Shown: positions 2,797 through 64,000 of the stretch, piece after piece
Layout: each line of letters begins with the position of its first letter
How positions within the stretch are numbered: the stretch's first letter is position 1
Assembly (NCBI GenBank): GCA_964404275.1
Contig: CAYOJH010000005.1
Coordinates: 4,471-68,470 of the forward strand
DNA: 64,000 nucleotides
Origin: an uncultured Gammaproteobacteria bacterium
GTDB lineage: Bacteria; Patescibacteriota; Patescibacteriia; SG8-24; DYFX01
Direction: 5' to 3'
Program-made: the position numbers and the translations under genes
Notes under the pieces: model-generated
Databases searched by the model: none
What the model was told of the DNA's origin: nothing
What the model saw: the letters and a program-made list of their open reading frames with translations, nothing else

Positions 2797-2800
2797 ACAT

Positions 2801-2826
2801 AAAAAATCCGCTCAGGCGGATTTTTC
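2801..2826. terminator. Bidirectional rho-independent terminator between convergent genes (PEGA protein / HAD hydrolase)
   Basis: AAAAAATCCGC-TCAG-GCGGATTTTT: 6-bp GC-rich stem flanked by A-tract and T-tract; overlaps stop of minus-strand gene. Confidence 0.7.
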
Positions 2827-11513: not shown

Positions 11514-12076
11514 AGGCCGTGGGCCAGAAGGCTGCAAAGCGCCAGGAAAGCCGCGATGCCGAAGAGCACGTAGGAAGCGTCTCGCGCGCCGGGAAAACCG
11601 CTTTCCAGAAAAATCAGGAAACAGGTCACGGCGACGACTTGGCAGACCATCTTCCACTTCCCCCACCAGTTCGAGCCGCGGATGACGCCTCGGCGCTTGC
11701 GCAGCCAGCCGCCGAGCACGAAAGCGAGCTCGAGGGCCAAGAGCGTCAGCGCGATGCCGATCGAAAACGCGCGGAAGAGCATCAGGACGACGACCGAGCC
11801 GATCAAGAGCTTGTCGGCGACCGGATCCCAAATCGTGCCCCAGGCCGTGATCTGGCCGCGCGTGCGCGCGAGCGAGCCGTCGATCAGATCGGTGAAGGCG
11901 ACGAAAAGAAAAAACGGCACGCCGACGGCATAGCGGCCGAAGGCCAAGAGCAGGATCACGAACGGGGTCAGCAAAAACCTGACGACCGTGATCTGATTCG
12001 GTCGCACGGAGTGCGGGAAGATCTTGAGGATCGTCGCCGCCAGCAAGCGGTCGTGCGGGTAGATTTTCGCCTTCAT
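11510..12076 (-). CDS. CDP-alcohol phosphatidyltransferase family protein
   Basis: Motif D-G-x2-A-R-x8-G-x3-G-x3-D-x3-D present (DLIDGSLARTRGQITAWGTIWDPVADKL); polytopic membrane protein. Confidence 0.8.
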   Translation of the reverse strand: MKAKIYPHDRLLAATILKIFPHSVRPNQITVVRFLLTPFVILLLAFGRYAVGVPFFLFVAFTDLIDGSLARTRGQITAWGTIWDPVADKLLIGSVVVLMLFRAFSIGIALTLLALELAFVLGGWLRKRRGVIRGSNWWGKWKMVCQVVAVTCFLIFLESGFPGARDASYVLFGIAAFLALCSLLAHGL

Positions 12077-12096: not shown

Positions 12097-14223
12097 ATGA
12101 AACCGCTTCATTCTACCATTTTGGCTTCGGTTGGAGGAGCCCTGGCGGCCCTGGGCCTGGCCTCGCCGGCCTTCGCCTTGCTCCTGCCGATCGGAGGGAC
12201 CCTGTTCCTGGCCGGAATGGCGGAAACCGCCGGAAAGCTGGCGTTCCCCGAGGAACGCTCGCCGATCCGCGGCTTGTTCGGGCTTCTCGGAGCCCTGGCG
12301 TTGATTTCGACGGCCGGCGCGATCGTCTATTACTTCTCCAAGCTCGATACGGTCGGCCTTTCCTGGCTGTGCGTCACGCTGCCCTGGGCGCTGTTCGCCG
12401 TCTCGCCGTTCGGCGCGCGCGTGCGCGAACATGTCGAGAAACCGACCTTGATCGTTGAAAAATCTTCGCCGGAAGATTCCCTTTCGGGCGTGCTCCTGCT
12501 CATCGCCGTCGCCGCCGATCTGGCCGCGCTGCGCTGGTTGTGGGGCGCCCGCACGGCCGAGGCCATCCGCTCCCCATGGGAAGTCGTCTCGCCGCTGTAT
12601 TTCCTGTGGATCGGCCTGGCGGCCTTCTGCCTGATCGCGCTCGCCTACCGCCGGCGCTTTCCGCACCTGACCTTGGCCGCCGCGTCGCTGCATCTCTTCG
12701 CGATGCTCGCGCCCGCCGCCTTGGTCTATGCCGTCGGATTCGGATTCGATCCGTTCGTGCATCAAGCCGCCGAGAAGCTCGTTTTCGCCGCGGGCGTCGT
12801 GACGCCGAAGACGCCGTACTACATCGGGCAGTACGCGCTGGTGACGGTCCTGACCAAGCTGTTCCGTTTGCCGATCGTGGCCGTCGATCGGTTCTTGCTG
12901 CCGACCTTGACCGCGCTTTTCCTGCCGGCCGCCGCGGCTTGGCTCCTGCGCCGCGGCTACGGCGTGCCGCGCGCGCTCGCTTTGGTCGCTTCCCTCGGCA
13001 TTTTTCTTTTGCCGCTCAGCGCCTTCGCTTCGACGACGCCGCAAGGCCTGGCCGATCTTTTTTTTCTGCTGACGATGCTGCTCGGCGCGGCTTGGCTCCA
13101 CGGGCACCGTCCCCCGCTCGGTTTCGTGTTACTGCTCGCCTTCGCGGCCGCCGCCACGCATCCGCTCTCTGGCGTGCCCGCGCTCATGGCCGCGGTCCTG
13201 CTCATGATCGCCAAGCTGCGCCATGACGGGCTGCCGGCGGCCAGGATCGCCAAGACCGTCGCTTTCGGCCTGGCCATCGGAATGGCGGCCGTGGCCATCC
13301 CGTTCGTTTTCGCCGTCCGCGAAGGCTCGGGCGTCGCGCCGCTCGTTTCGGCGTTCCACAAACCGATCGCGGAACTGCTGCTTGGCATCCCGTTCGAAGC
13401 GCCCGGCCTCGCCTCGCGCTACCGGCCGATCCTCGACTTCGCCGAATTCCTGGCGCGCAATCAAGACGCGTTCTTGTTCCTCTTGGCCGGCGCGGGCGCT
13501 TGGCTCCTCTTGCGGCGCAGAGGCTACCGCCGTTCGGCGCTCGCCGCGGGCGGACTTTCCATCGCCTTGCTGATCTCCGTCGCGATCCTCCGCAGCAGTT
13601 TCGTTTTCAAAGACGTGATCGGCTACGAGCAGGCCAACTACGCCGATCGCTTGTACGACGCCGCGCTCTTGTCGCTCGCCCCGTTGGTCTTGGCCGGCGT
13701 GGCCTGGTGGTGGCGCGCGCTGTCCAAGGCGGAGCACGGAGTGCGCATGCTGCACGCGCTGCTCTTCGCCGCCGCCATCTCCGCGCTCGCCTACGCCGCC
13801 TTCCCGCGTCTCGACGACTACCGCTTCAGCCGCGGCTACTCGGCCTCGATCCATGACGTCCGCGCCGTCGACTGGATCAACGCGCACGGCGTCGCGCCCT
13901 ACGTCGTCCTCGCGAACCAATCGACCTCGGCCGCCGCGCTTTCGGAATTCGGCTTCAAAACGTATTACGGCTCGCAATTTTATTACGCGATCCCGACCGG
14001 CGCGCCGCTGTATCAGTCGTATCTCGAGATGGTCTACGGCGGCGCCAAGCGCGAGACGATGGAAGCGGCCATGCGCGAGATGCAGGTGCCGACCGCCTAC
14101 TTCGTGATCGACAGCTATTGGACGAACGCTTCAAGCGTCATCGCGGCGGCGAAAAAAACCGCCGATGACTGGCAGGACATCGACGGCGGACAAGCCATGA
14201 TTTTCCGCTACGCGCTCAAGTAG
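12097..14223 (+). CDS. Large polytopic membrane protein (708 aa) with C-terminal soluble domain; possible second GT-C-like transferase
   Basis: At least 12 hydrophobic helices followed by ~170-aa hydrophilic C-terminal domain; architecture reminiscent of GT-C enzymes; no motif proof. ATG only 20 nt from divergent start at 12076. Confidence 0.5.
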   Translation: MKPLHSTILASVGGALAALGLASPAFALLLPIGGTLFLAGMAETAGKLAFPEERSPIRGLFGLLGALALISTAGAIVYYFSKLDTVGLSWLCVTLPWALFAVSPFGARVREHVEKPTLIVEKSSPEDSLSGVLLLIAVAADLAALRWLWGARTAEAIRSPWEVVSPLYFLWIGLAAFCLIALAYRRRFPHLTLAAASLHLFAMLAPAALVYAVGFGFDPFVHQAAEKLVFAAGVVTPKTPYYIGQYALVTVLTKLFRLPIVAVDRFLLPTLTALFLPAAAAWLLRRGYGVPRALALVASLGIFLLPLSAFASTTPQGLADLFFLLTMLLGAAWLHGHRPPLGFVLLLAFAAAATHPLSGVPALMAAVLLMIAKLRHDGLPAARIAKTVAFGLAIGMAAVAIPFVFAVREGSGVAPLVSAFHKPIAELLLGIPFEAPGLASRYRPILDFAEFLARNQDAFLFLLAGAGAWLLLRRRGYRRSALAAGGLSIALLISVAILRSSFVFKDVIGYEQANYADRLYDAALLSLAPLVLAGVAWWWRALSKAEHGVRMLHALLFAAAISALAYAAFPRLDDYRFSRGYSASIHDVRAVDWINAHGVAPYVVLANQSTSAAALSEFGFKTYYGSQFYYAIPTGAPLYQSYLEMVYGGAKRETMEAAMREMQVPTAYFVIDSYWTNASSVIAAAKKTADDWQDIDGGQAMIFRYALK

Positions 14224-21494: not shown

Positions 21495-24400
21495 TTAGGA
21501 GCGGGTCATCGTCTGAGCGTCCGACGGGAGAACCTTGATGAAGCGACCGTTCGTCCAGTCGTTCGACGAGCCAGACGCATCCGACGAAAGGTTGGTGTCA
21601 ACCACGTCGTTATGCGGGATCAGGCTATTGTCGGACCAGATGAAGTTGTACTCGCCGTCAGCGGCAGAGCCATCATAGTCGTCGATGGCGGTGTGAGCGA
21701 CGGACGAGAACGTGAACGGAACGCCGTTGTCCAATTCACCCGTCACCTGGGCGGTGTCGCCGAGGAGCGAGGTGCTGATGGACTCTCCGGAAGCGTCAGC
21801 GCCAGCAACCGTCACGCGAAGCTCATAGGTCTTCGACGTACCGGCAGCAATCGTCTGTTCGTTGGTGAACGAGACGTGGAGCGTGCAGGACGCGGAGGAA
21901 GCGGTAGCGCAGCTACCGATGTCAGAGGCACCAGCGATGTTGGAGCCTTGACCCACTTCGCGGATCATCGAGTCGGCCGCAGTCGTGCTGGCCGAGATGT
22001 TCGAGCCTGACACGTTGTTCAGGTTGAGGTTGAAGGACACCGTCTTGAGCGAGAGCTGCTGGGCCGCATCGGCCGTCACCGTGAAGCGAGAGATCACCTG
22101 CGTGCCGTTCGACAGGGTCGAGGTCGGCAGCGCGGCGAGGCTCACCGTCGGCTTGGTCTTGCGGTTGCGCTTTTCGCGGCCGCTGACAGCGCCCGAGTTG
22201 CCGACGAGATCGATCGTGCTGGAGCCGGCGGACGTGCCGCGGACTTCATACGTACCGGTGTCGCCGGAGCAGTCCGAGTTGGCGCCATCGCAGAGCTTGA
22301 CGGTCAGGTCGAGACCGGAGGCAGCGCCGCCGGAACCAACCGCGTTCAGGTCACCCTTGACGGTCAGCGTCTTCGAGCTGTCCTTCAAAACGACGAAGGA
22401 GAAGCCGGAGAAGTCCGCGTTACCCGAAGAGTTCACCGAGACCGGGCCGGCAACCATCGTTGAACCATCGTACAACCAGAGGTTGTTGACGGCCGTGACG
22501 GAAGCGGACGGGATCGACAAGCGAACCTTATCGAGCTTGAGGTCTTCGCTTTGCGCCGTGAAGCGGTACTTGGCGAGAACCGAGGTCGTGCCGCCGAGGA
22601 CGATGCCTGCTTCGGATTCAGAATCATCCGGGGCGAGAGCATAGGTCATCGAGCCGTTGGCCGAGATGATCATGCTGGCAGACGTCACCGAACCGGACTT
22701 CGAGACGGCGTTGCCATCCTTGTCCTGAGCGGTCACGTCGGCGTTCGCGACGGTGAAGCGAATCGTGTCGTTCAGGTTGGCGATCGAGCCGGAGAGGTTG
22801 CCCGAGAGGGACAACGTCACCGTCTGACCGGCCGGAACGACGAGGTTCATGTTGCTGAACTGCAGGAGACCGCCATCGTTCGAGGCGCAGGACGCCGTCG
22901 AGGAAGTCGGACTCTTGATGTCACCCACCTGGGTGGTGCCGTTCATCAACTTGGCCGAGAGCAGGATGTCGGTCGCGAACTTGTCGGTCGAGCCCGTGTC
23001 AAGGCCGTTTTCACAGCCGTTGGCAAAGGTCGTGTCGTTGTTCGCGTCGACCTGCGTCTGGACCGTCATCGAGGTGACCGTCACGTCGCCGCCCTGGCCA
23101 GCCTGGAGGCTGATGCCGGCGAGCGGAGCGTTCTGGGTGCCCTGGATGTAGGTCTGCGCAACCGGCGTGGAGGCCGTCGAAACGGTCAGCGTCGGAGTGC
23201 GCAGGGTCATCGCGTTACCCGTGATCGTCGAGGACGGGACGATGGTCGACGTGTCGACGAAGGTCGAGTTGTCGAGGTTGCGGATGTCGCTCGACTGGAA
23301 CGGCGAGAGACTCAATTGAATCGAGTCGCTGTCGAGAGCCGCCTGGTTCGCGACGTCCATCGTCACCTTGAAGGTGCGCGACTGGCCGGCGGACAACGAG
23401 AACACGTCCGTGTAGACGAGGTTCTGAGTGGTGTCGTTGCCGGAGATATCGACGTCCTTCGGACCAGCGACGACCTGGCTGGAAGCCGTGTCCGTCACCT
23501 TGATGTCGGTGTAGTTCGCAACGCTCGGGGAACCCGAGGAGTTGACGAGACCACCGGCGGCATCAATGCCGGTCGCCGTGATGGCGAGGCGGAGGTTGCG
23601 GACTTCGACGTTGGACTGCGAAGCGAGCGTGAAGTTCAGGACTTCCTGATCTTTGCCGTTCGTCGCAATGTCATGCGCGGCCGGGCCATTGAAGGTGATC
23701 GTGATCTGACCGCCTTCCACCGCCGAGTACGAGCAGTCGCCCGCGCTCGAGGTGCAGCTGTCGCCGTCGTACGCAGTGCGCGTAACGGAGGCGCCATAGC
23801 CGAACGTGCGGCCGACAGCCCAGACGTCAGTGTCCTCTTCCGTGGCGAGCTTGACGGTGTCACCCGAGCGGGCGCCGCCACCGATATCGCCCCAGACCTC
23901 GTAGGTGCGGGTGTTGCCCTTTTCGAGGAGGGTGTTCTGCGTCAGGACGAAGGTCACATGATCCTTGGCATCGATACCGGACGCCGACGCAACGTCAGTG
24001 CCGCCGGAGCGGAGCTTGAGGTTGGTCAAGTTGGACGACGCGATATTGCCGCTCTGGAAGAGCGTGATGCGCTTGATGTCGAGGTCTTCAGCCGCTCCAG
24101 CGGAGAGCTGGAACTCGGCAAGCTTCACGCCCATCTGACCGACTTTCGGGTTGGTGATCGAACCGCTCTTGGCGATCGTGACCGAACCAACCGTCGCGCC
24201 GGCGAGAGTCATGTTGTTGCCCGAGACCGGGAGACCGGAAGCCGTCGAGGTGCCGCTCATGAGAGAGGTGACCTGGAAGGCGTTCACGTCACCGGACGAA
24301 GCCGAGCCGGACATCGTCGCGGCGACCCAGAAGGTCCGGGTCTGGCCGGCGGCGAGGTTCCAACCGAGGCTGTTGAAGGTGACATCGTTCGTCGAGCTGT

Positions 24401-25208
24401 TGACGGAGCGGCCCGTGGTCAGACGGACATCGCCTTCGAACAGGTAGACGTTCGAGAAGTCAGACGGCGAACCGGCGCCCATACGATGGAGCGTGACGGA
24501 GTCGACCGAGAGGGCCGAACCCGTGCCGTTCGAGACGTTGAACTTCATGTAGTTCACGCCGACCGCGCCCTTCGGCACCGTGGCCGAAGCCGGGCTGTCG
24601 GACGCGAGGCTGACGGAGAGACCGGAGAGCATACCAGGACCCGAGGACAAGTTCTTGTCCTGGTTGATGGTCTGGCTTCCGCTCATTTCGTTGGCCTTGT
24701 TGTAGTCCGAAGCCGCATTCAACGCCGAACCCATCGAGTAGTTCGTGAAGAACGCGTCGGAGACGTCGTCAATCTGCTTGTTCCAGGTGGAACCGTACAG
24801 ACCGGAAGCGACGGCTTCGGAAGCGATCGGACGGAGGGTGCCGCCTTTGGAGATGGCATAGACCTTCGGATCGCTCTGAATCTTGATCATCTTCACGCCC
24901 GGGCGATAGGTGACGTTGCCACCGATCTGGACGGAAGCGAGATCAGCGTCAGAAATCTTCATGACGCCGCTGAAGTCGGAGTACCAAGTGAAGTACGCCT
25001 TGTCGTTCGTGAACACGTAGCGCTTTCCATCGCCACCGCAGTAGTAGACAGCGGCGAGAGAACCTTTGATGAGACTACCGCTCGTGCAGCCGGCGGCAGA
25101 AGCCTTCAAAGGAGCGACGAGGACGGTCGCCATCATCGACCAAAGAATGGTCGTGAGGACAACGCCCATCGTCAGAGCCTTGCGGCTCATTTTGAGGACA
25201 TCGGTCAT
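21495..25208 (-). CDS. Giant (1237 aa) secreted Thr/Ser/Gly/Asn-rich surface protein, S-layer-like / adhesin-like
   Basis: N-terminal signal anchor (VVLTTILWSMMATVLVAPLKASAAG); N-terminal ~125-aa domain homologous to subtilase C-terminus; remainder low-complexity beta-rich repeats; start chosen at ATG 25208 (AAGGA upstream). Confidence 0.7.
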   Translation of the reverse strand: MTDVLKMSRKALTMGVVLTTILWSMMATVLVAPLKASAAGCTSGSLIKGSLAAVYYCGGDGKRYVFTNDKAYFTWYSDFSGVMKISDADLASVQIGGNVTYRPGVKMIKIQSDPKVYAISKGGTLRPIASEAVASGLYGSTWNKQIDDVSDAFFTNYSMGSALNAASDYNKANEMSGSQTINQDKNLSSGPGMLSGLSVSLASDSPASATVPKGAVGVNYMKFNVSNGTGSALSVDSVTLHRMGAGSPSDFSNVYLFEGDVRLTTGRSVNSSTNDVTFNSLGWNLAAGQTRTFWVAATMSGSASSGDVNAFQVTSLMSGTSTASGLPVSGNNMTLAGATVGSVTIAKSGSITNPKVGQMGVKLAEFQLSAGAAEDLDIKRITLFQSGNIASSNLTNLKLRSGGTDVASASGIDAKDHVTFVLTQNTLLEKGNTRTYEVWGDIGGGARSGDTVKLATEEDTDVWAVGRTFGYGASVTRTAYDGDSCTSSAGDCSYSAVEGGQITITFNGPAAHDIATNGKDQEVLNFTLASQSNVEVRNLRLAITATGIDAAGGLVNSSGSPSVANYTDIKVTDTASSQVVAGPKDVDISGNDTTQNLVYTDVFSLSAGQSRTFKVTMDVANQAALDSDSIQLSLSPFQSSDIRNLDNSTFVDTSTIVPSSTITGNAMTLRTPTLTVSTASTPVAQTYIQGTQNAPLAGISLQAGQGGDVTVTSMTVQTQVDANNDTTFANGCENGLDTGSTDKFATDILLSAKLMNGTTQVGDIKSPTSSTASCASNDGGLLQFSNMNLVVPAGQTVTLSLSGNLSGSIANLNDTIRFTVANADVTAQDKDGNAVSKSGSVTSASMIISANGSMTYALAPDDSESEAGIVLGGTTSVLAKYRFTAQSEDLKLDKVRLSIPSASVTAVNNLWLYDGSTMVAGPVSVNSSGNADFSGFSFVVLKDSSKTLTVKGDLNAVGSGGAASGLDLTVKLCDGANSDCSGDTGTYEVRGTSAGSSTIDLVGNSGAVSGREKRNRKTKPTVSLAALPTSTLSNGTQVISRFTVTADAAQQLSLKTVSFNLNLNNVSGSNISASTTAADSMIREVGQGSNIAGASDIGSCATASSASCTLHVSFTNEQTIAAGTSKTYELRVTVAGADASGESISTSLLGDTAQVTGELDNGVPFTFSSVAHTAIDDYDGSAADGEYNFIWSDNSLIPHNDVVDTNLSSDASGSSNDWTNGRFIKVLPSDAQTMTRS

Positions 25209-25302
25209 AAGTGATGAGATCCTTTCTTCAAGTTTAGTTTCAGCGGCACGGCCTTGCGGCCTCGACCTTCTTAGCGCCACTGTTGCCCAAAGGGCCCGTC
25301 CG

Positions 25303-35514: not shown

Positions 35515-37281
35515 CTAATGCCAGATGTGGCCACCGGTGATGAAGCAATTGCTGTAGGTGTACTCGTTCAGGTCGAGCCAGTAGACGTTCGTCCCGTCCG
35601 TGAGGGCGGGACTGAAGGCGTTGTCCGAGCTCGAGAGCGTGAACGTGTACGTGGCCGTATCACCCTGCCAGCCGAGGATCGTCCTGCCCGTCGTGTAGGG
35701 CAGGCTGTAATTCGTGCTGGCCGAACCGTATTCCATCTTCCAATTGGATGATGGGTTCACGGTCTGGCCGTTCGACAGGTGCGCCAGGATCCCGTTCGAG
35801 ATCGTGATCGTCCAGTCGGTCGACGTCAGCGAGCAGCTGATCGTGCCGTTGCTCGCGTTCGTCGTGGTCGAATGCAGGAACTCATTCGTCCCGATCGCGC
35901 AGGTGCCCGAGGCCGCGTAATCGCTTACGCGCGCCCAGTGCTCGTGACCGTTCGTGTCCCAGACGGCGAAGGTGAAGTTCGAGACCGTGTTCGGCATCGT
36001 CAGCGTATACGAGACGCTATCCGACTGCCACGTCAGCGCTTGCGTGCCGCCGTAGCCGAACCCGATCGACGAAGGCGAGGCGCCGTTGAACGCGTCCAAG
36101 ACGTGCGCCAGGACTCCGGACGGGATCGTCACGAGCGTGTTCGATCCCGATTCGGAGCACGTGACGGTCGCGGAACCGGTGTTCGATCCCGCCGCGTGGC
36201 GGAATTCGCCGGTCCCGACCGAACAGGTGCCTGAGGCGTTGAACTGGGTCACGTCGAACCAGTGATCGTTGCCGCCCGTGTCGCGCACGACGAGATTGAA
36301 TCCGGAAACCGTGTTCGGCATCGTCAGCACGTACGAGGTGCTGTCCGAGACCCACGCTTCCGAATCCGTCCCGCCGTAGCCGAAGCGGATCGACGAAGGC
36401 GTCGCGCCGTTGAGGTCGAAGACGTGCGCCAGGATCCCGTTCGAGATCGTGACATAGGTCTGCGTTCCCTGTTCGACGCACGCGAGGTTGCCGTTGCCGG
36501 TGTTCGTCGTGCCGGTGCCGTGATGGCAGCCGTCGCTCTGGCAGCTGTCCGCCGTCGAGCTGTTGCCGTCGTCGCAGGCGTTCGGACAGAGCGGCGGTCG
36601 TCCGATGACGAAACCGTCGTCGGCGCCGTTCGGACCGAAGCCGTCCGAGATCCGAGCACAGCTGTCGCCGCCCACGTTCCACTTCGACAAGTCGAAACGG
36701 AGCGCGGTGCCGGACGACGGCCAGGCCAAGAGCGTGAAGCGCTGAGCCTGATTCTGCGGGATGACGATCTCCTCCGAGAGCACGCCGCCCAACGAAGTCT
36801 CGTTGGCATCGAGCGCGATCTGGTACGCGGTCGTCAGCGTCGTGGTGTTCCACGTGCTGCCGTCCGCGTCGGTGGCGATCGAGATGTGCGTCGGCGAGGT
36901 CAGCGTGCCGCCGTAGATAGCGTCGGTCAGCTTGCCGGAGACCGTGACATGCAGGTTGCCGTCGTTCGTCACGAAGCAACTGATGCCATGGGTCGTCGGA
37001 AGCGTGTTCGACATGTCGCAGGTGCCCGCTTGCTCGTTGCAGGTCTCGTTCGCGCCGCAGCTCGAGGCGTACGCGCAGGTGCCGCTCCGGCACGTGCCGA
37101 AGTCGCAGGCGGACGGAGCGTTGTCGCAGTCCGCGTCCGAGGCGCAGCTCTTGGGCTGCGGATTCGGATTGGGATTGGGATTCGAGCCGCCGCCGTTGCC
37201 GTCGTCGCCGGAACCGGCGGGACGGATGGCGCAGGCCGCGAGCGCGAGGCTGCACGCCAGGAAACGGATGATCGTCTTCAT
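35515..37281 (-). CDS. Cys-rich lipoprotein with three tandem ~95-aa repeats
   Basis: Lipobox LAACA; NPNPNPNPQP linker; three repeats each G[IV]LAH...GxxPSSI...GYGGT...WxSDSxSYxLTMPNTVSxF...SGTCxxGTxEF. Confidence 0.6.
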   Translation of the reverse strand: MKTIIRFLACSLALAACAIRPAGSGDDGNGGGSNPNPNPNPQPKSCASDADCDNAPSACDFGTCRSGTCAYASSCGANETCNEQAGTCDMSNTLPTTHGISCFVTNDGNLHVTVSGKLTDAIYGGTLTSPTHISIATDADGSTWNTTTLTTAYQIALDANETSLGGVLSEEIVIPQNQAQRFTLLAWPSSGTALRFDLSKWNVGGDSCARISDGFGPNGADDGFVIGRPPLCPNACDDGNSSTADSCQSDGCHHGTGTTNTGNGNLACVEQGTQTYVTISNGILAHVFDLNGATPSSIRFGYGGTDSEAWVSDSTSYVLTMPNTVSGFNLVVRDTGGNDHWFDVTQFNASGTCSVGTGEFRHAAGSNTGSATVTCSESGSNTLVTIPSGVLAHVLDAFNGASPSSIGFGYGGTQALTWQSDSVSYTLTMPNTVSNFTFAVWDTNGHEHWARVSDYAASGTCAIGTNEFLHSTTTNASNGTISCSLTSTDWTITISNGILAHLSNGQTVNPSSNWKMEYGSASTNYSLPYTTGRTILGWQGDTATYTFTLSSSDNAFSPALTDGTNVYWLDLNEYTYSNCFITGGHIWH

Positions 37282-40969: not shown

Positions 40970-42100
40970 TTACCTCTTTTCCCCGTCGAGTGTCACATCG
41001 ACCGAGCGCTCGGCGCCGTCCTTGAGGACGTCGAAACGGATCTTGGCGCCCGGCTCCTTTTCGGCGATGACTTCGGCCAGATCGCGGCCGCCGGAGAGAT
41101 CCTGCCCGTCGGCACGCAAGAGAATGTCGCCTTCCTGCAAGCCGGCGCGGTCGGCGGCCGATCCCGGACGGACGGCCGGCAGGCCGAGCGCGCGCGAACC
41201 GGTCAAGCGCTCCCCTTTCAAGTCGCCGAAGCCGCCGGCCGAGAGCGAGATCTCTTCCAACGTCAGGTAGTTCACGCCGAGCTGCGCTCGCGCGGGCATC
41301 TGGCCGTGGAAGATCTGGGAGAGGACCGGGCGGAACAGGTGTGTCGGCACGAACGCGTTGACGCCGTCTTTGCTCGTCACGACGATGCCGGCCAAGCTGC
41401 CGCCCGCGGTCAGCACGGCGCCGCCGGTCGCGCGAAGGCCCAGGACGCGGCCCAGCCGGAAGAGGCGCGAGAAGCGGTCCGCGCTCTGGAGCGCGGGAGC
41501 TGCCGCCTGGCGGCCGATCGGAACGGCGCCGGCGAACATGGTGCGGGCGAAGAGCGCGCTTTCATCCTGAACGTAGAGCGGCGTGCCGGAGCGTGGAGCG
41601 TCCGTGTCTTCGAAAGCGCTGACGGGAAGATCCGTCGCGTCGATTTTCAGGAAGACCAGGCCGGTGCGCGGATCGCTGACTTGCTGTTTCGGCTCGAGCA
41701 GGCGGCCGCCGACGGAAGCCAGCACCGCTCCGCCGCCGAGAGCGGATTGGGATGTCGCGAGCCAGCCGTCGGAAGTGATGACGGTCGCGTACCCGACCGC
41801 CTCCGAAGGAATGCGGGCGCGCAGCGAAAGATCGCCGCCGCCGATCGCGGCAGCCGCGCGGGCGTAGAGCCGCACGTTGACGCGCCGCAGCCTGTCGGAC
41901 AGATCGGCATCCTGCAGGGCCGCGCTGGCGGGCGCGGGCAGCTGCCCGATCTGGATCGGCTCGGCGATGGCGGCGGACCAGGAGGCGAAAGACGACTCGA
42001 CCACCAAGGCGGCGGCCAGGCCGGAAACCAAACCGAGCAAAGCCGGCACGAAGATCATCCGCGTCAGTTCGCTCCAGGAGATTTTTTTCTTGGAAAGCAT
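40970..42100 (-). CDS. HtrA/DegP-like trypsin-fold protease with C-terminal PDZ domain (catalytic His not evident)
   Basis: N-terminal TM anchor; trypsin-like core (GYATVITSDGWLATSQS, GLVFLKID, TAGGSLAGIVV) and PDZ (GVNYLTLEE...GDILLRADGQDL); position aligning to catalytic His shows Ser/Gln. Confidence 0.55.
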   Translation of the reverse strand: MLSKKKISWSELTRMIFVPALLGLVSGLAAALVVESSFASWSAAIAEPIQIGQLPAPASAALQDADLSDRLRRVNVRLYARAAAAIGGGDLSLRARIPSEAVGYATVITSDGWLATSQSALGGGAVLASVGGRLLEPKQQVSDPRTGLVFLKIDATDLPVSAFEDTDAPRSGTPLYVQDESALFARTMFAGAVPIGRQAAAPALQSADRFSRLFRLGRVLGLRATGGAVLTAGGSLAGIVVTSKDGVNAFVPTHLFRPVLSQIFHGQMPARAQLGVNYLTLEEISLSAGGFGDLKGERLTGSRALGLPAVRPGSAADRAGLQEGDILLRADGQDLSGGRDLAEVIAEKEPGAKIRFDVLKDGAERSVDVTLDGEKR

Positions 42101-42891: not shown

Positions 42892-43941
42892 TCAGCGGTT
42901 CGTTTTGACGAAATGCAGCGCGTCGGTCAGCAAGATGCCGATGACCATCGCGACCGGAATGGCCAAGAGCGCGCCGAGCAGTCCCGCCACTTTGACGCCG
43001 ATCAAAAGCGCGAAAATGCTGACGATCGGATGAAGGCCCGTCACGCGCTGCATGACCTTCGGCACGAGGATGTGGCTTTCGGTCTGCTGGATCACGAGAT
43101 AAATGACGGCGACCAGCAGTCCCTTGAGCGGCGAGTCGGTCAGCGCGATCAGGATGCCGGGGATGGCCGCGAAGATCGGGCCGACGTACGGGATGGCTTC
43201 GGCCAGCATGGCGGTCAGCGCCAGCACGAGCGCGTATTTCACGCCGAGGATCTTGAGCGCGATGTAGACGGACGTGCCGACGATGCCGCCCAAGATCAAT
43301 TGGCCGCGCGCCCAGCCGCCGATGCTTTTCTCGATGCGCTGGAAGAGATCGACCAGGTAGGGCTGATACGGTTCCGGCGCGACCGTGCGGAAGAGCTTCT
43401 TCAGCGCATCTTCGGACACGACCAGATAGAACGCGACGACCAGCACGATGACCAGCGAAACGAAGCCCTTGGCGATCCCGCTGATCGTGGCGACGACGCC
43501 GACCGCGGCGACTCCCAGGCTGCCCGAAGCGTTGCCGATCGCCTGGCGGAGGTGGTCTCCCAAATCATGCGCGGCGATGAAATCCCGGAGCGGGCCGAAG
43601 GTCGAAAGCAGGCGCGACCAGATCGCGTCGGCATTCATGACGAGATCGCGCGTTTCGTACATCACGGCCGGCACGAGCGTCGTGATCACGGCGCCGATGA
43701 TCAGCAGGATGATCGCGTAGAGCAGGAGCACCGCCAGTCCGCGCGACATCCGCTTCGATTGGAACCAGGAAGCCAGCGGATTGATGATCGAAGCCAGGAT
43801 CAGCGAAACGAAGAACAGCGCGATGATGTCGCGGATGAGATACAGGAAGCCGCAGGCCAGCAGGAAAACCGCGACCTTCACGATGGTGACGGTCGAAATG
43901 GTGATGACCTGAGGCTGGCGTTCCGCGCCGTTTTCCGGCAT
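42892..43941 (-). CDS. AI-2E family transporter (PerM/YdiK-like)
   Basis: Eight-helix pattern and conserved C-terminal region (LAEAIPYVGPIFAAIPGILIAL...IQQTESHILVPKVM); internal Met start. Confidence 0.75.
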   Translation of the reverse strand: MPENGAERQPQVITISTVTIVKVAVFLLACGFLYLIRDIIALFFVSLILASIINPLASWFQSKRMSRGLAVLLLYAIILLIIGAVITTLVPAVMYETRDLVMNADAIWSRLLSTFGPLRDFIAAHDLGDHLRQAIGNASGSLGVAAVGVVATISGIAKGFVSLVIVLVVAFYLVVSEDALKKLFRTVAPEPYQPYLVDLFQRIEKSIGGWARGQLILGGIVGTSVYIALKILGVKYALVLALTAMLAEAIPYVGPIFAAIPGILIALTDSPLKGLLVAVIYLVIQQTESHILVPKVMQRVTGLHPIVSIFALLIGVKVAGLLGALLAIPVAMVIGILLTDALHFVKTNR

Positions 43942-43947
43942 AGTTCG

Positions 43948-43976
43948 TTGGAAATGTAGCACGGAAAGGCTACACT
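43948..43976 (+). promoter_or_regulatory. Sigma-70-type promoter TTGGAA-N17-TACACT for smpB
   Basis: Located 17 nt upstream of smpB ATG in 51-nt divergent intergenic region. Confidence 0.5.
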
Positions 43977-43992
43977 GACCAGGGCATTCCTT

Positions 43993-44445
43993 ATGAACGA
44001 GAGCATCGCCTCGAACGACAACGTCCGGCACGATTACGAACTCCTCGAGACGATGGAGGCGGGCTTGGTGCTCTCCGGACAGGAAGTCAAATCCGCCAAG
44101 ACGGGCCACATGAAACTCAAGGGCGCGCACGTGGCCTTCAGCCGCGGCGAAGCCATGCTGCTCGGCGCCCGGATCGCGCGCTATCCGAAGGCCGGACCGC
44201 TCCCCGGCTACGATCCCGAACGCTCGCGGAAATTGCTCCTGCACAAGAAGGAATTGAATCGATTGCGCGGAAAACGCGAAGAAGAAGGGTTGACGATCGT
44301 GCCGATTCGTGCTTATATGAAGGGCGGCCGCATCAAGATCGAGATCGCCGTCGCGCGCGGCAAGAAGCACTACGAGAAGCGCGAAGCGATTAAAAAACGC
44401 GACCTCGACCGCGAGGCGCGCAGCCGGATGAAGATCCGGCGATAA
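43993..44445 (+). CDS. smpB: SsrA-binding protein SmpB
   Basis: HDYELLETMEAGLVLSGQEVKS...RKLLLHKKELNRL...GLTIVPIRAYMKGGRIKIEIAVARGKKHYEKRE matches SmpB over its length. Confidence 0.9.
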   Translation: MNESIASNDNVRHDYELLETMEAGLVLSGQEVKSAKTGHMKLKGAHVAFSRGEAMLLGARIARYPKAGPLPGYDPERSRKLLLHKKELNRLRGKREEEGLTIVPIRAYMKGGRIKIEIAVARGKKHYEKREAIKKRDLDREARSRMKIRR

Positions 44446-44482
44446 GTTCCCGAGGAGAGCTCCGCCACGCGGCATTCCTCTC

Positions 44483-44887
44483 GGGGATGTATAGATTCGA
44501 TGGAGTTCGTTCTCAATTCGCGCAGGTTGACGGCGCCCGCCCGTCATAAATCACCGGGCAAACGACTACGTGCCAACGTTTTCGCAAAAGCCAAGGCCGC
44601 GTTCGCTCGCGCGTTCGCGCCGTCCTTCGCTCCGGTCTTCGCCTAAGCGCGACTGACCCATCGCCCGTCGACATCTTCTAGACGGATCCCGGTGTCATAA
44701 GAAGGTCCGCCGCATGTTCCGCCGAGAGGCATGCGATACGGTTGGATCCAGGCACGGACGCATGCCACTCGTCGCCTCTATGCATGCGCTCCGGTCCCGC
44801 TTGCGGGAAAACCCGAGACGACTACGCCTGTAGTGCGGATTGTCCTACTTCCTCCAGACCCGGGTGCGAATCCCGGCATCTCCACCA
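44483..44887 (+). ncRNA. ssrA: tmRNA (SsrA), one-piece
   Basis: 5' GGGGATG...ATTCGATGG (tRNA-like acceptor/D analog), 3' T-arm CCCGGGTGCGAATCCCGG and acceptor CATCTCCACCA pairing with 5' end; located immediately after smpB; internal Ala-rich tag frame ending TAA. Confidence 0.8.
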
Positions 44888-44893
44888 AAAAAA

Positions 44894-44924
44894 ATACCCC
44901 ATCCTCGCGATGGGGTATTTTTTG
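44894..44924 (+). terminator. Rho-independent terminator after tmRNA
   Basis: ACCCCATC-CTCGC-GATGGGGT followed by ATTTTTTGG. Confidence 0.75.
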
Positions 44925-44940
44925 GTATACTTCATTCACT

Positions 44941-56090: not shown

Positions 56091-56178
56091 CGTTTTCCTG
56101 TTACCCTGGCGCGTTGCTCTTTGGAAAATTCACCCCTACCGAAAACCCCTAGCCCGACACCAAGAAAGAGAGGTGGCT

Positions 56179-57414
56179 ATGGGCCACTCCAGCGTCGTCC
56201 CGTCCGAAAAGGACCCGCCCTGCGAGAAGTGCAACCAAGACTGGCAACGTCACACGCTCCTGGGCATGAAAGACGGCGTGTTCCACATGGAATGCGACCG
56301 CGATCCCGCCCTCGGCATCGACCCGAACCTGCAGAGGATCGACGACTTGCTCGCGGCCGAAAAGAACGCCAAGAGCCTCGAAGATCGCCTGACGCAGCGC
56401 GTGGCCGATCGGGAAGACGAGCACAAGGCTCGGATCCAGACCCTCGAACAGGAGCTAAGGCAGAAGAGCCTCAGGCTTCAGGATCTGGAAGCCCGCGCCG
56501 GCCGCCAAGATGAAGTCATCAGGGAGACCTGCGATAGGGCTCTCGACGCGCAGAAGAGGGTCCATGCGGCCGAGATCGATCCGCTTCGCCAGAAGCTGGC
56601 CGATCACGCGGAGCTGCAAACCAAGCTGGCCGAAAGCGAAAACAACTATCGGCTGGCCAAGAGCGGCAACGACGCGCTCATCGCCGACGCGCACAAGCTC
56701 AACGAAGCGTTGGCGAAAGCCAAAGAGGAAACCGCGAAAGCGCGCTTCAATCTGAATCTCGCCGAAGGCGAGCTGGAGCAGTTGCGCAGCGACTACGAGA
56801 GCCTCAAGAAGGGTCTCGAGAACCAGACGATCCGCGTCGGCCAACTCGAAGCCCAGCTGCTCGCGCGGCACGCTCCGGCCACTCCCCCGCCCTTCAAAAA
56901 GGCCGAGGAGAAGGCGCCAGTGCCCGCCGCGCCGGACACCGTCCAGATGCCGGCGGCGGAGCTTCCGAACGAGAAGGAGTTCCTCGTTCCCGACGAGGTC
57001 TCCGTGATCGAGGAGAAAGAAGCCATCGCGATCGGCGGCGGCAACACGGAAGCGCTGCAGAGCATGGATCTCATCCCGCTCGACCCCGTATCGAAGGGGG
57101 AAGAGGACGAGGAAGAGGCCTTCGAAGCTCCGCCGTGCGACGTCTGCGGTCAGACCGCCGTCGCGCAAGCGCCTTTCGAACCCAAGCCCGGCGCGACGGA
57201 CGATGACGGACAGCTGATGGGACCGGCCACGCTCTACGCCTGTCTCAAGGACAGCCAAGACTGCAACGGTTTCCAAGCCGCCCTGGGCGCGCTGGAAGAG
57301 CACTTCCAAAATCCTCCCAAGGATCTGGAAGAGCTCCGCAAGCGTTTCCGGCCGTTGTATCCCGCCGCGCACCTCGTCTCCAACGACCGCACCCAAGAGG
57401 AGATCCGCTCATGA
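56179..57414 (+). CDS. Coiled-coil protein with symmetric terminal CxxC zinc-ribbon-like motifs
   Basis: N-term PPCEKC...H...HMEC and C-term PPCDVC...C...C flanking ~250 aa of heptad-like Ala/Glu/Leu/Lys-rich sequence; RBS GAGAGG. Confidence 0.55.
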   Translation: MGHSSVVPSEKDPPCEKCNQDWQRHTLLGMKDGVFHMECDRDPALGIDPNLQRIDDLLAAEKNAKSLEDRLTQRVADREDEHKARIQTLEQELRQKSLRLQDLEARAGRQDEVIRETCDRALDAQKRVHAAEIDPLRQKLADHAELQTKLAESENNYRLAKSGNDALIADAHKLNEALAKAKEETAKARFNLNLAEGELEQLRSDYESLKKGLENQTIRVGQLEAQLLARHAPATPPPFKKAEEKAPVPAAPDTVQMPAAELPNEKEFLVPDEVSVIEEKEAIAIGGGNTEALQSMDLIPLDPVSKGEEDEEEAFEAPPCDVCGQTAVAQAPFEPKPGATDDDGQLMGPATLYACLKDSQDCNGFQAALGALEEHFQNPPKDLEELRKRFRPLYPAAHLVSNDRTQEEIRS

Positions 57415-61144: not shown

Positions 61145-62767
61145 TCACCGCGGCAGCGCGCAGCCGGTCCGGTCCGAAAGCGCCTTGAGGGATTGTTCAC
61201 CGACCAGGCGCGAGCCATCGGTGAATTCCCAAGTCGGATAGTCTTTGATGTTTTTGTTCGCGCAGACGTCGAGTTCGCTCTTGCCGTCCTCCGAGTTGCA
61301 TTCGACGTACGGCAGCCGCTCGGTCCCGCCGGCGAAGAGTTTCTTCTGCGCCTGGCAGTGATCGCAGGTGGACGCTCCGTAGAACACGGCGCCCTTGCTC
61401 TTCAAGCAGGCGGCGAACGACGCGTCCCAGATTTCCAACGTCATGAGCGCCTGGCGGATGACGTCCACGTTGGCATCCCATTTTTCGGCGGGCATGGAGG
61501 ATCCGATGAAATAGATGACGGCGTTCTTCATGGCCAGCACCGCGAGCGCGTGGTTCTTGACGCCCGCGTCCGTGTAGGTCGCTTCGAGAACGCGCGTGTC
61601 GAGACGGTCGCCGGAGAGCGCCTGGCTCTCGATTGTCGAAGAAAAATCTTTGTAGGTCCGGATCAATTCTTTCGAAAAGAATTGCGCGGCGTCGTCGGCA
61701 CTCTTGGCCTGGATGGCCGCCGCCGCGATGAAAGCGGTCTTGATCTGCGGATGGAACGGCTTGCCCTGAGACGCGCCCTGCGCGGGACCGTCGAACACGA
61801 TCGGCGAATCCGCTCCGCCTTTTTCGTTAACCGTCCAGCCCTTGGGCGGATGGAGGCTGAAGGCGAAGCTGTCGCTGACATACGGCTTGAGTTCCAGCGT
61901 TTCCCGTCCCGTGGGCGAGACCGGCGTGTTGCCGAGCGACCCGGAATACCCTTCGATGAGGGGTTTCTGCAACCAACCGGCGCCAAGGACGACGGCCGTC
62001 ATGACCACGATGCCGAGGCCGCAAAGGATGAGGCCCGCGCTGGCGACGCGCCGTTTCTTCGATGCCAAGCCTCTCCAGCCGCTCACCAATCCGTAGGCAT
62101 GCAGTTCGGCGCCGGCGAACGGGTTGAAGATCCACAGGAGCGGGGCGGCGATCGCGAACAGAAGAGCCGAGCCCGCATCTTTTTCCTTCATCTCTTCAGG
62201 CGATGGCGCCGGCCTTTTCTTCACGACGCCGATCAGGGTCAACAGCCAGACGAGCAGGCGCAGGAATCCGCCGACGATCATCAGCATGATGAAGAAGACG
62301 TTGAAGATCCCGGCGGTGAACAGGATGCGCAGAAGAATCGGAACGGACCCGCGGAGATCGGTCACTTCCAAAGCGGGCGCAGCGCCGTCCGAACTGAACC
62401 GGCCGCTGACCAGGACGGGAATTCCCCCGCCCTTGAAAGCCTCGAGGCCTTGGCAATCGGAGACGTCGAGCGGGAGGCTGAACGCCCCGTCGCGCAACGT
62501 GAACGTCTCTTCCGCGGCGGAATAGCGCAGGACGCCACTCAGCGTGATCTGCTGGAGGTTCCAGTAGTCGGGATGCAGGATGATGTCCTGGAGATCCGTG
62601 GTCCGGCCCTCGGCGTATGTCGCGCCGCATTCCGCACGCGGACCGTCGGACGAACCCGAACGGATGGACCAGTACAGATACGGCGCCGAAACCAACAAGG
62701 CGGTGGCCGACAGGAAGGCGGCCCAACCGGCGAATTTCTTGAAGATGCCCTTCATCTTGGGAGACAT
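61145..62767 (-). CDS. Membrane protein with C-terminal thioredoxin-like CxxC domain (VKOR-associated Trx-like) and central PsbP/DUF1795-like domain
   Basis: C-terminal AVFYGASTCDHCQAQKKLFAG...PYVEC...PTWEFTDGSRLVGEQSL thioredoxin-fold motif; several TM helices. Confidence 0.55.
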   Translation of the reverse strand: MSPKMKGIFKKFAGWAAFLSATALLVSAPYLYWSIRSGSSDGPRAECGATYAEGRTTDLQDIILHPDYWNLQQITLSGVLRYSAAEETFTLRDGAFSLPLDVSDCQGLEAFKGGGIPVLVSGRFSSDGAAPALEVTDLRGSVPILLRILFTAGIFNVFFIMLMIVGGFLRLLVWLLTLIGVVKKRPAPSPEEMKEKDAGSALLFAIAAPLLWIFNPFAGAELHAYGLVSGWRGLASKKRRVASAGLILCGLGIVVMTAVVLGAGWLQKPLIEGYSGSLGNTPVSPTGRETLELKPYVSDSFAFSLHPPKGWTVNEKGGADSPIVFDGPAQGASQGKPFHPQIKTAFIAAAAIQAKSADDAAQFFSKELIRTYKDFSSTIESQALSGDRLDTRVLEATYTDAGVKNHALAVLAMKNAVIYFIGSSMPAEKWDANVDVIRQALMTLEIWDASFAACLKSKGAVFYGASTCDHCQAQKKLFAGGTERLPYVECNSEDGKSELDVCANKNIKDYPTWEFTDGSRLVGEQSLKALSDRTGCALPR

Positions 62768-62775
62768 CGGGTTTT

Positions 62776-64000
62776 TCAATGCACAATCATTTTGCTGCAA
62801 TCCTTAGGCATCCAGCAGGAAGCCCAGCCGTCCGTGCGTTTGACCATGCAATCATTGATGCACGTACATTGACCGGCATCGCAGAGATCGCGCTGATGAT
62901 AGTATTCGCTGTCGCTCAAATCACCGGACTCAAGCGCGTCGAGACAGGCCGTGTAAGGCGCGTAACACGGGTTGGTGCAGTCGTCGGGTATCTTCGTAAA
63001 ATTACTGCAGTCGACTTGCGGCGCGGGCGCGGGTTCCGGCGCGGGCGCCGCGGGAACGACCGTCATGACGGAGTTCTCGCATACGGAGATGCCGGCCGTA
63101 TCGACGACGCAGACGCCGAAGGTGAACGTTCCGGACCCGCTCGGAGTCCCCGACAGCAAGCCGTTCGTATCGAGAATCAACCCGTGCGGCGGGAACCCGA
63201 CGCCGGTGGCGAGCTGAAAATGATAGGGCGGCAATCCATCGCTCCCGCTGTATTGCGCGCTGAAGGAGGTGCCGGCGAGCGCCGTCAGCTGCTTGTAGTA
63301 GTTGAGGACCAGCGGTTTGGTCGCCACGCCGTTCGACGGGATCGTTTTCAGTTTCGGTTTCGGCGCGGTCGGATTCGCCGGCGGCGAGGCCGGACTTGCC
63401 GGCGGCGTCTGAACAGCCGCTGGTTTTTCTTCAGGCAGCTTTTTCTGCTCCGCGTCGTTCTTGAGGGTCTGGTGCGATTCGGCCGGCTTCTTGGAGAGCG
63501 CCTTGAACAGGTCGGGAATGCTGAGCTTCCGCGCGTCCGGTTTGGCCGCTTCTTCTTTCGCGGCGGCGATCTTCTTGTCCAGATCGTCGAAGTTGGTCCT
63601 GAGCGCGGCAGGGACGCCGAGCTTCTCTTCCTGATCCATGACCTGTTTCTTGATCGCTTCGGCCCTGTTCCCGGCAGCGATGACTTCTTGGTCGGGAAGC
63701 AGCTTGAGGGTCGCCACGAACCGGTCCCACAGCGTCTGCGCGGTCGCCGCCGAACGCGCGGCGACATCCAGCTCCTGCAGATACGCTTGCTGCGCGTCCT
63801 TCAGCTGCGCGAGGAGGTCGGTGGTCTTCGCGTCGTCGCCGGCGGCGTGGGCCTCCACGAGATCCTGGCGCAGCTTGGCCAGCCGATCCTCCATGGTGCG
63901 CCTGATCGTGCCGTTCAAATCGACGTACGCCGTCGGTACTTGCCGAAGGACGGCCGGATCATCGCCAGGCTTTGCCCGCGAGGCGATCAGTTCCCATTCG
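62776..64000 (-). CDS. Partial (N-terminus outside window) protein with coiled-coil, Pro-rich linker, putative Ig-like domain and 12-Cys C-terminal module
   Basis: Reading frame stays open to window edge beyond track TTG start; GLPPYHFQLATGVGFPPHGLILDTNGLLSGTPSGSGTFTF resembles putative Ig domain; C-terminus CSNFTKIPDDCTNPCYAPYTACLD...CDAGQCTCINDCMVKR. Confidence 0.5.
   Translation of the reverse strand, partial: EWELIASRAKPGDDPAVLRQVPTAYVDLNGTIRRTMEDRLAKLRQDLVEAHAAGDDAKTTDLLAQLKDAQQAYLQELDVAARSAATAQTLWDRFVATLKLLPDQEVIAAGNRAEAIKKQVMDQEEKLGVPAALRTNFDDLDKKIAAAKEEAAKPDARKLSIPDLFKALSKKPAESHQTLKNDAEQKKLPEEKPAAVQTPPASPASPPANPTAPKPKLKTIPSNGVATKPLVLNYYKQLTALAGTSFSAQYSGSDGLPPYHFQLATGVGFPPHGLILDTNGLLSGTPSGSGTFTFGVCVVDTAGISVCENSVMTVVPAAPAPEPAPAPQVDCSNFTKIPDDCTNPCYAPYTACLDALESGDLSDSEYYHQRDLCDAGQCTCINDCMVKRTDGWASCWMPKDCSKMIVH

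Follow-up and report, generated by a model that had tools for sequence, protein, structure and literature searches.

An extended hydrophobic tag in the one-piece tmRNA of a Patescibacteria clade

It is generally accepted that the standard one-piece transfer-messenger RNA (tmRNA; RF00023, SsrA of E. coli) comprises a tRNA-like domain with a G3.U pair and a CCA end, the pseudoknot PK1 and a single-stranded spacer in which position -4 is A. The alanine resume codon is followed by AAC at +2, the stop codon falls within the helix 5 loop, and smpB lies next to the gene. All these features are shared by the gene described here, which lies in a 64,000-nt stretch (the window) of contig CAYOJH010000005.1. 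A difference concerns the tag: in E. coli it has 11 residues and the most frequent bacterial length is 10 (PMC8403727, PMC11915505), in contrast to 24 residues in the window, which end in VFA instead of LAA and contain no AANDENY-type site for SspB. The T-loop UGCGAAU, a modest Rfam score and the lack of detection by ARAGORN also set this gene apart from the standard form.

A second described system close to the window is the extended tag of Mollicutes. The tag of M. pneumoniae is a hydrophobic and aromatic peptide of 27 residues, degraded mainly by Lon in a genome devoid of ClpXP (PMC8403727). Mollicute tags end in NYAFA and are read by Lon (PMC9382460), and the mf-ssrA tag of Mesoplasma florum carries this ending as well. 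The window tag has in common with them a length of more than 20 residues, a richness in hydrophobic and aromatic residues, the Phe-Ala end, a host with a reduced genome, and conservation along the whole tag, which suggests recognition at several sites. However, it comes from another phylum and consists chiefly of Ala, Phe and Pro, Lys or Arg being placed near the N-terminus, and it is not rich in Asn and Asp. The NYAFA motif is replaced by APVFA here and by APVLA in most relatives, with the hydrophobic-Ala end alone being shared. The window tag can be regarded as analogous to, and not homologous with, the Mollicute tag.

In the literature no paper on tmRNA tags of Patescibacteria was found, judged by titles and abstracts of the fifteen in which both terms occur; the tmRNA database holds 5275 Patescibacteria instances and makes no comment on them (PMC11915505). 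The gene presented below does not constitute a new kind of system: it is an ordinary one-piece tmRNA, and its extended hydrophobic tag is typical of the lineage. Taking gene identity, resume codon and tag sequence jointly, it is very probably a functional ssrA gene of Patescibacteria (candidate phyla radiation, CPR), paired with the adjacent SmpB.

The gene, its structure and the tag frame

RF00023 is the only Rfam family above its threshold in the window. The match spans the whole model (1-374 of 374) and scores 77 bits, the gathering score being 47 (E 3.7e-28). A one-piece tmRNA following smpB had been proposed by the first-pass annotation, made from the letters and the open reading frames (ORFs) of the stretch, and its coordinates were reproduced exactly by this model (Table 1). 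The two genes are separated by 37 nt, and the order smpB-tmRNA is common to all related loci. Co-transcription of the pair is plausible because no promoter-like site was found between them. In the terminator-like region past the CCA end a longer stem, ACCCCATC...GATGGGGT, is visible beside the hairpin listed in Table 1.

Relatives were collected from three sources: SmpB-guided loci with one genome per species, an exact 20-mer scan of metagenome contigs, and contigs encoding SmpB homologues of decreasing identity, 88% to 57% (loci are designated L001, L002 and so on). In each locus with enough downstream sequence a full-length tmRNA was recognised by Rfam after smpB. One match of the metagenome pattern scan (L083) was a chance match within a protein-coding gene and was discarded.

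Base pairs were counted in an alignment of 15 tmRNAs across five elements, namely the acceptor stem, both stems of PK1, helix 5 and the T arm. Paired cells amounted to 93%, as compared to 39-52% when the 3' partners were slid by 1-3 columns; both sides were changed in 19 of 31 pairs, and the observed covariation score was reached by none of 500 shuffles. The G3.U pair of the acceptor stem, an alanine identity element, is present in all 15 sequences. Stems A and B of PK1 are paired in 94% and 79% respectively, each with four pairs changed on both sides (stem B reads GCCCG/CGGGC in the window and GCCUU/AAGGC in L001). Helix 5, the 5' arm of which doubles as the last four tag codons, is 91% paired and six of its eight pairs are changed on both sides. 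The 3' half (PK2-PK4 region) was aligned by the covariance model (CM) at low posterior probability, including an unaligned insert of 54 nt. The T-loop (44865-44871, nt 383-389) has G where the usual UUCGAAU or UUCAAUU loop has U (Psi55). This G is shared by L001, L081, L082, L084, L085, L089, L090, L092, L094 and L009, and the more distant L095, L097, L003 and L008 retain a UUCRAYU loop; the tRNA-like domain thus deviates here in a manner that is conserved within the clade and specific to it.

ARAGORN (version 1.2.41), which had been suggested next to a CM search as a means of fixing the resume codon, did not serve this purpose. No tmRNA was reported in the window under default settings, and at thresholds of 87% or less the correct gene ends were returned with the label "tmRNAp" and a wrong tag, ATDPSPVDIF, which is an artefact flagged by the program itself as "Tag not identified". 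Thirteen relatives with Rfam scores of 77-123 bits were also missed by the defaults. Detection was not restored by changing the T-loop G to T, nor in six chimeras with the detectable L097 tmRNA (5' 30 nt, 3' 60 nt, halves joined at the resume codon), and the failure is multifactorial. In genomes of this type annotated with ARAGORN only, ssrA will be missing or will carry a false tag, and the gene is recovered by the Rfam covariance model.

It could be argued that the tmRNA is decaying or non-functional and that the long frame arose by chance because GC is high, since ARAGORN fails by default and returns a pseudo-tmRNA label at low threshold, 77 bits is low for a tmRNA in Rfam, the T-loop has G at the position of U55, and DNA of 61% GC often contains long open frames. 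Nevertheless, the core helices are kept through compensatory changes in 15 sequences, the G3.U pair, the CCA end and smpB are intact, and both the odd T-loop and the tag are conserved clade-wide instead of being peculiar to this copy, which makes decay hardly credible.

In the CM alignment the consensus resume codon (UGCaAAC) falls on UGCCAAC, which sets translation to resume at GCC 44572, nt 90 of the RNA. The same codon had been picked by the first-pass annotation, and it is further supported by the covariation of PK1 and helix 5, the upstream context and the +2 codon. The spacer between PK1 and the resume codon is 12 nt long in the window and 11-13 nt in five relatives measured by hand. The window context reads CUACGU and then GCC AAC; among the long-tag relatives the tetramer at -6 to -3 is (A/C)(U/C)A(A/C/U), with A at -4 invariant, and the +2 codon is AAY or AAA. 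A preference for AUAA or AUAG upstream of the resume codon has been described, with which the A at -4 is in register, and the conserved features match the published upstream-context and +2 codon rules (PMC4236655). The UAA stop (nt 162-164) is located, as is canonical, within the loop of helix 5, which covaries. A short tag ending in LAA was not what the structural alignment gave.

Ten alanine codons occur in the frame, and several in-frame starts are formally possible. Resumption at a later one (for example GCC 44590 or GCT 44605) would leave a tag of 10-18 residues and make the upstream codons an untranslated spacer, the bases near the proposed resume codon being kept perhaps for contacts with the RNA or SmpB. 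This is very improbable: the CM alignment sets the codon at 44572, and only there are the PK1 distance of 11-13 nt, the A at -4 and a +2 codon starting with AA found together, a combination kept in all relatives. Moreover, residues 3-9 vary conservatively and as codons do (V/L at 3, F/I/L/V at 4, K/R at 6), the GTT/GTA/CTC changes being synonymous or conservative, and the homologous frame, with the equivalent first codon, is called independently by ARAGORN in L003, L008, L097 and L101.

An E. coli-like start, GCAAACGAC at 44558, would place the resume site upstream of GCC 44572 and give a tag ANDYVPTFSQKPRP...KRD. The stretch is identical over nine bases to the beginning of the E. coli tag frame, and in the window the frame (ANDYVPTFSQKPRPRSLARSRRPSLRSSPKRD, then UGA) stays open. 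The first-pass annotation had rightly set this frame aside as not tag-like because of its KRD-UGA end, although its length from 44558 is 32 codons and not the 30 given there. In PK1 stem B, which ends at 44559 and is supported by compensatory changes, the GC of GCAAACGAC makes up the final two paired positions. In seven relatives TGA follows after 11 codons (ANDYVPTFSQK), so that neither length nor C-terminus is kept; the ratio of nonsynonymous to synonymous differences (pN/pS) in this +1 frame is 1.07, the C-terminal residues are charged, and the resume codon is set elsewhere by the CM alignment. The ANDY reading is already effectively refuted, its probability being negligible.

The frame beginning at GCC 44572 encodes the 24 residues ANVFAKAKAAFARAFAPSFAPVFA (10 Ala, 5 Phe and 2 Val among them) and ends in PVFA-UAA as first read, which is borne out by translation and by conservation of the peptide in relatives. 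Its end is V-F-A within APVFA, and the short form of about 8-14 residues with L-A-A or V-A-A was not found. All three frames are open across this stretch, and it was estimated that about 47% of random frames would stay open for 24 codons in DNA of 61% GC. As far as the sequence is concerned, an open frame of 24 codons is not significant by itself at this GC content, and its significance comes from comparison. The comparison decides the frame because every relative examined has it open in an unchanged structural register and conserves its peptide. For twelve tags of 24 codons the pooled pN/pS is 0.55 in the tag frame versus 1.07 and 1.65 in the shifted frames, and variable sites at codon positions 1, 2 and 3 number 13, 11 and 18, the third position varying most (GCT CGC in L081 versus GCC CGT in L082 is a synonymous example). 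This pattern indicates that the tag frame is translated and under selection.

A hairpin inside the tag frame is present in the minimum free energy (MFE) structure of the window sequence, and a conserved RNA hairpin was considered as the cause of peptide conservation. It was rejected, as the RNAalifold covariation term is only -0.5 kcal/mol for the whole region in 11 relatives outside the AT-rich set. Because the hairpin is almost without covariation support, RNA structure does not explain the conservation of the tag, with the exception of the last four codons in the arm of helix 5.

Tags of relatives and origin of the long tag

The tag frame was read in more than 20 related Patescibacteria tmRNAs with SmpB identities from 88% to 48% and tmRNA GC contents of 39-62% (Table 1). 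In all long-tag relatives it is open for 21-26 codons, and in 14 of them for exactly 24. The consensus peptide is ANVxAKVKxAxAxAFAPSFAPxLA, and it is retained while the GC content of the tmRNA shifts from 61% to 39% (L003). In L085 the tag is one codon longer and still in frame, and hence an in-frame length change of 3 nt has taken place. In its general layout the tag has a basic segment near the N-terminus (AK-x-K), followed by hydrophobic residues, for the most part Phe, Leu or Ile, spaced roughly four positions apart, and it closes with a non-polar hydrophobic-Ala end. The long-tag relatives end in V-L-A, A-L-A or M-A-(I/L)-A. When short tags are included, none of 25 Patescibacteria tags read ends in Ala-Ala, the ends being hydrophobic-Ala or Ala-Val. 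Judged on this comparison, the long tag is an inherited and selected lineage trait, and 21-26 residues are the rule in this Patescibacteria clade.

The tag had been called unusually long, which holds against the bacterial norm (a mode of 10 residues) and not against precedent, considering the 27 residues in Mollicutes and the range within the clade. Tags of other phyla in the same locus set have 9-13 residues and end in LAA or similar. The Phe-Ala terminus, also described as atypical, is a minor variant: most close relatives end in PVLA, from which PVFA differs by TTC versus CTC, one C-to-T change.

Short tags of 11-13 residues occur in other Patescibacteria, such as ANLFQPSYAVA (Giovannonibacteria), ANLFEQPALAYA (Paceibacterota), GNKQSQPSLAFA and ADNSYRFAYAAYA. 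They share with the window clade the ANL(F) start and the hydrophobic-Ala-hydrophobic-Ala end, in comparison to which the clade has about 12 extra internal residues (AKVKxAFAxAFAP). On sequence grounds the long tag seems to have gained about 12 residues by expansion in its interior. At 44614-44642 Tandem Repeats Finder gives only a weak period of 12 nt (2.4 copies, score 37); it hints at duplication of a four-codon xFAx unit, which is not solid.

Tags of 20-22 residues were also read in metagenome-assembled genomes (MAGs) of uncultured Bacilli/Tenericutes. Tags such as GNKIKNAFASAFKGNAVAFA and GNKLKNAFATLFNKNTVAFA have a K-x-AFA-x-(A/L)F core and an end of the V-A-F-A type resembling KTAFANAFAPSFAPVLA of the window, and a K-x-(A/I)-(F/A)-(A/S)-x-x-F core is common to three of the four MAG tags and the Patescibacteria tag. 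They differ in phylum, in the Gly start (GNK...) and in having no Pro-containing FAP repeats. The likeness may be due to convergence, possibly on the same recognition logic.

It is conceivable, though doubtful, that the tag consists of two parts, a basic module (AN-h-h-AK-V-K) and repeats (AFAxAFAPxFAPV[L/F]A), expanded from a short ANLF...QPxhAhA ancestor. Such a tag would be a multi-site degron, or would join an adaptor site to a protease site, and would have converged with the Lon tag of Mollicutes after protease simplification in a second genome-reduced lineage.

Table 1. Features of the window and tags read in related loci
Feature	Position	Strand	Evidence or tag sequence
tmRNA gene, one-piece (standard form), 405 nt, CCA end encoded	44483..44887	+	Rfam RF00023; relatives 77-132 bits
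smpB (SsrA-binding protein, 150 aa; protein partner of tmRNA)	43993..44445	+	PF01668; 2588 homologues at E<=1e-20
Acceptor stem 5' strand GGGGAUG, pairs with 44877-44883	44483..44489	+	7/7 pairs 100% paired in 15 sequences; 2 compensatory
Pseudoknot PK1; stem A nt 46-51/59-64, stem B nt 53-57/73-77	44528..44559	+	pair counts
Single-stranded spacer AAACGACUACGU, 12 nt, PK1 to resume codon; U at -5, A at -4	44560..44571	+	
Tag frame: GCC resume codon, 24 codons, UAA stop 44644-44646	44572..44646	+	CM alignment, translation, conservation; ANVFAKAKAAFARAFAPSFAPVFA
Helix 5, nt 152-155/173-176 and 157-160/167-170, UAA stop in loop	44634..44658	+	MFE, RNAalifold consensus, covariation
T arm (nt 378-382/390-394, loop UGCGAAU), acceptor 3' strand, discriminator A, CCA	44860..44887	+	T stem 100% paired, 3 compensatory
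Terminator-like hairpin and T-run, just past CCA end	44903..44925	+	stem 44903-44915, then TATTTTTTGG
Large ORF without Pfam match	21495-25280	-	
Large ORF without Pfam match	12097-14223	+	
Large ORF without Pfam match	9960-11831	-	
Large ORF without Pfam match	35515-37281	-	
Large ORF without Pfam match	61145-62800	-	
L001 tag			ANVFAKVKTAFANAFAPSFAPVLA
L002, L104 tag			ANVLAKVKTAFANAFAPSFAPVLA
L086, L088 tag			ANVLAKVKTAFANAFAPSFAPVFA
L089 tag			ANVIAKVKTAIANAFAPSFAPVLA
L081 tag			ANVIAKVKSAFARAFAPTFAPVLA
L082 tag			ANVIAKVKSAFARAFAPSFAPVLA
L084 tag			ANVIAKVKSAFARAFAPTFALGLA
L085 tag (25 aa, in frame)			ANVIAKVKSALASAFAPTFAFSAVA
L092 tag			ANVFAKVKAAFARAFAPSFAPVLA
L090 tag			ANVLSRAKAALARAFAPQFAPVFA
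L094 tag			ANVIKNVKNAIAQAFTFSAVPVLA
L095 tag			ANLVAKAKAAFASAFAPSPAMVLA
L100 tag			ANLVTRAKAALANAFALQPAMALA
L103 tag			ANLLTRVKNAVANAFAPSFAPALA
L097 tag			ANLYQKAVAAVRNFANGFALAPAMA
L101 tag			ANLLSKVKASVASIANSFAFAPALA
L003 tag (tmRNA GC 39%)			ANNLFAKVKSAFTPNFAFAAV
L008 (Doudnabacteria) tag			AKALSRVKEKLASIFAPQLSPLLALA
L009 tag			ANLMAKVKYAFSVPSLSMAIA
L035 tag, uncultured Bacilli/Tenericutes MAG, 20-22 aa			GKNLKDRIASMFTKNVVAFA
L048 tag, uncultured Bacilli/Tenericutes MAG, 20-22 aa			GNKIKNAFASAFKGNAVAFA
L079 tag, uncultured Bacilli/Tenericutes MAG, 20-22 aa			GNKLKNAFATLFNKNTVAFA
L024 tag, uncultured Bacilli/Tenericutes MAG, 20-22 aa			AQLNITGKSEKGAFGSANLAFA

Proposed mechanism and the protease

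In the proposed mechanism the alanine-charged tmRNA would enter the stalled ribosome and the nascent chain would pass to that alanine. Translation would then resume at GCC 44572, set 12 nt past PK1 by the upstream ...CUACGU context, and proceed through the 24 codons until the UAA within the helix 5 loop is reached, where stalled proteins would be released with the C-terminal extension (A)ANVFAKAKAAFARAFAPSFAPVFA. The tag would act as a degradation signal for an AAA+ protease with a preference for exposed hydrophobic or aromatic sequence. In this it would resemble the extended, Lon-specific Mollicute tag and not the short ...YALAA tag of the ClpX/SspB type.

We infer that the tag is a degron read along much of its length, because conservation spans the whole tag and not the C-terminus alone, because hydrophobic residues, for the most part Phe, Leu or Ile, recur at intervals of about four positions, because the Ala-Ala C-terminus is absent from the 25 Patescibacteria tags read, and because several sites within a hydrophobic degron are recognised by Lon, which prefers to cut after Phe (PMC11986505). 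A Lon-type enzyme is put forward tentatively as the main protease, this assignment falling somewhat short of probable, and FtsH in that role is improbable.

ClpXP, on the other hand, is the main protease of ssrA-tagged proteins in most bacteria (PMC9382460). It might recognise the tag essentially by its C-terminal residues, the extra length being neutral or an adaptor-binding extension. The end of the tag is small and non-polar with a free Ala carboxylate, as in canonical tags, and a predicted Clp protease has been reported in the Patescibacterium TM7x (PMC10768705). However, the terminus is V-F-A or V-L-A and never L-A-A or V-A-A, the common ending (PMC9382460), none of the 25 Patescibacteria tags departs from the hydrophobic-Ala or Ala-Val ends, and a purely C-terminal signal does not explain conservation over all 24 residues including the N-terminal AK-x-K. 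Recognition by ClpXP in this manner is rather unlikely.

The reading preferred here, of a functional gene whose long tag is a Mollicute-like degron read along its length, has several points to its disadvantage. The fact that ARAGORN makes no call of gene or frame is the sole one which concerns gene identity or frame. A pN/pS of 0.55 means moderate purifying selection only, and helix 5 puts a further constraint on the last four codons, so that conservation at the C-terminus may in part be due to the RNA. No sequence homology with the Mollicute tags could be detected for the window tag. Loss of ClpXP cannot be assumed, because TM7x has the predicted Clp protease mentioned above, and this was the only passing mention found in literature on Clp and Lon in Patescibacteria/CPR. 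Among the 40 largest ORFs in the 64 kb no Lon, ClpX, ClpA/C, FtsH or ClpP was recognised by Pfam, a result which says nothing on the rest of the genome. Similarly, no AAA+ protease was found in the 20 kb around smpB in the complete relative CP129476.1.

A clade-wide peptide of 24 residues offers a defined candidate degron for uncultivated ultra-small bacteria. Tagged proteins could be sought in metaproteomes with the strings ...AANVFAK and AFAPSFAPVFA, and the peptide could possibly be used as an orthogonal degradation tag, as mf-ssrA serves. If long hydrophobic tags do track the loss of ClpXP/SspB in both Mollicutes and Patescibacteria, this would be a clear case of convergent co-evolution of tag and protease; if they do not, the window holds a lineage-specific variant of a well-understood system.

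Neighbouring genes and minor observations

In the window the tmRNA is directly followed by a cold-shock gene. On the opposite strand a mechanical ORF of 551 residues (42892-44547) overlaps smpB and the 5' end of the tmRNA and is an over-extended call; relatives carry an AI-2E transporter gene of 349-350 residues, which ends before smpB. Three genes upstream of smpB, at 40970-42100(-), lies the gene of a 376-residue protein that has a membrane anchor at its N-terminus and a PDZ domain at its C-terminus, possibly a divergent HtrA-like protease. The order PDZ protein, membrane protein of 261 residues, AI-2E transporter and smpB is kept in CP129476.1.

The remainder of the window holds mostly cell-envelope sugar and glycosyltransferase genes, a subtilase and SUF Fe-S assembly genes. 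Five large ORFs (551-1261 residues; Table 1) have a GC content at third codon positions (GC3) of the coding type and no Pfam match at E<=1e-5. A 90-nt tRNA-Gly(CCC) called by ARAGORN at 57286-57375(+) is probably a false positive: it lies within an ORF of 413 residues (56173-57414) of coding-type GC3, and no tRNA reaches the Rfam gathering threshold in the whole window.

Two contigs from MAGs labelled "uncultured Gammaproteobacteria", L002 (CAZKMF010000110.1) and L003 (CAYNWH010000003.1), carry a Patescibacteria-type smpB (81% and 49% identity) together with a long-tag tmRNA, and their label is likely to reflect mis-binning or mislabelling in public records.

Signs of possible mobile DNA were noticed at the tmRNA gene in two relatives. 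In L104 (CP129476.1, GCA_030583805.1, 1.167 Mb) the 3' end of the tmRNA, GGTGCGAATCCCGGCATCTCCA, is present as a 22-nt direct repeat at 10867 and 17220. The repeats (L104:10867-17241) flank about 6.3 kb with a DNA methylase, a sigma70_r4-like protein and an ORF of 672 residues, a segment with the appearance of a genomic island that has entered the tmRNA gene by integration. The use of ssrA as an integration site in this clade is hinted at again by L100, where a large serine recombinase (Resolvase, Recombinase, Zn_ribbon_recom; 1994-2844, reverse strand) ends within the 3' part of the tmRNA (1758-2157).

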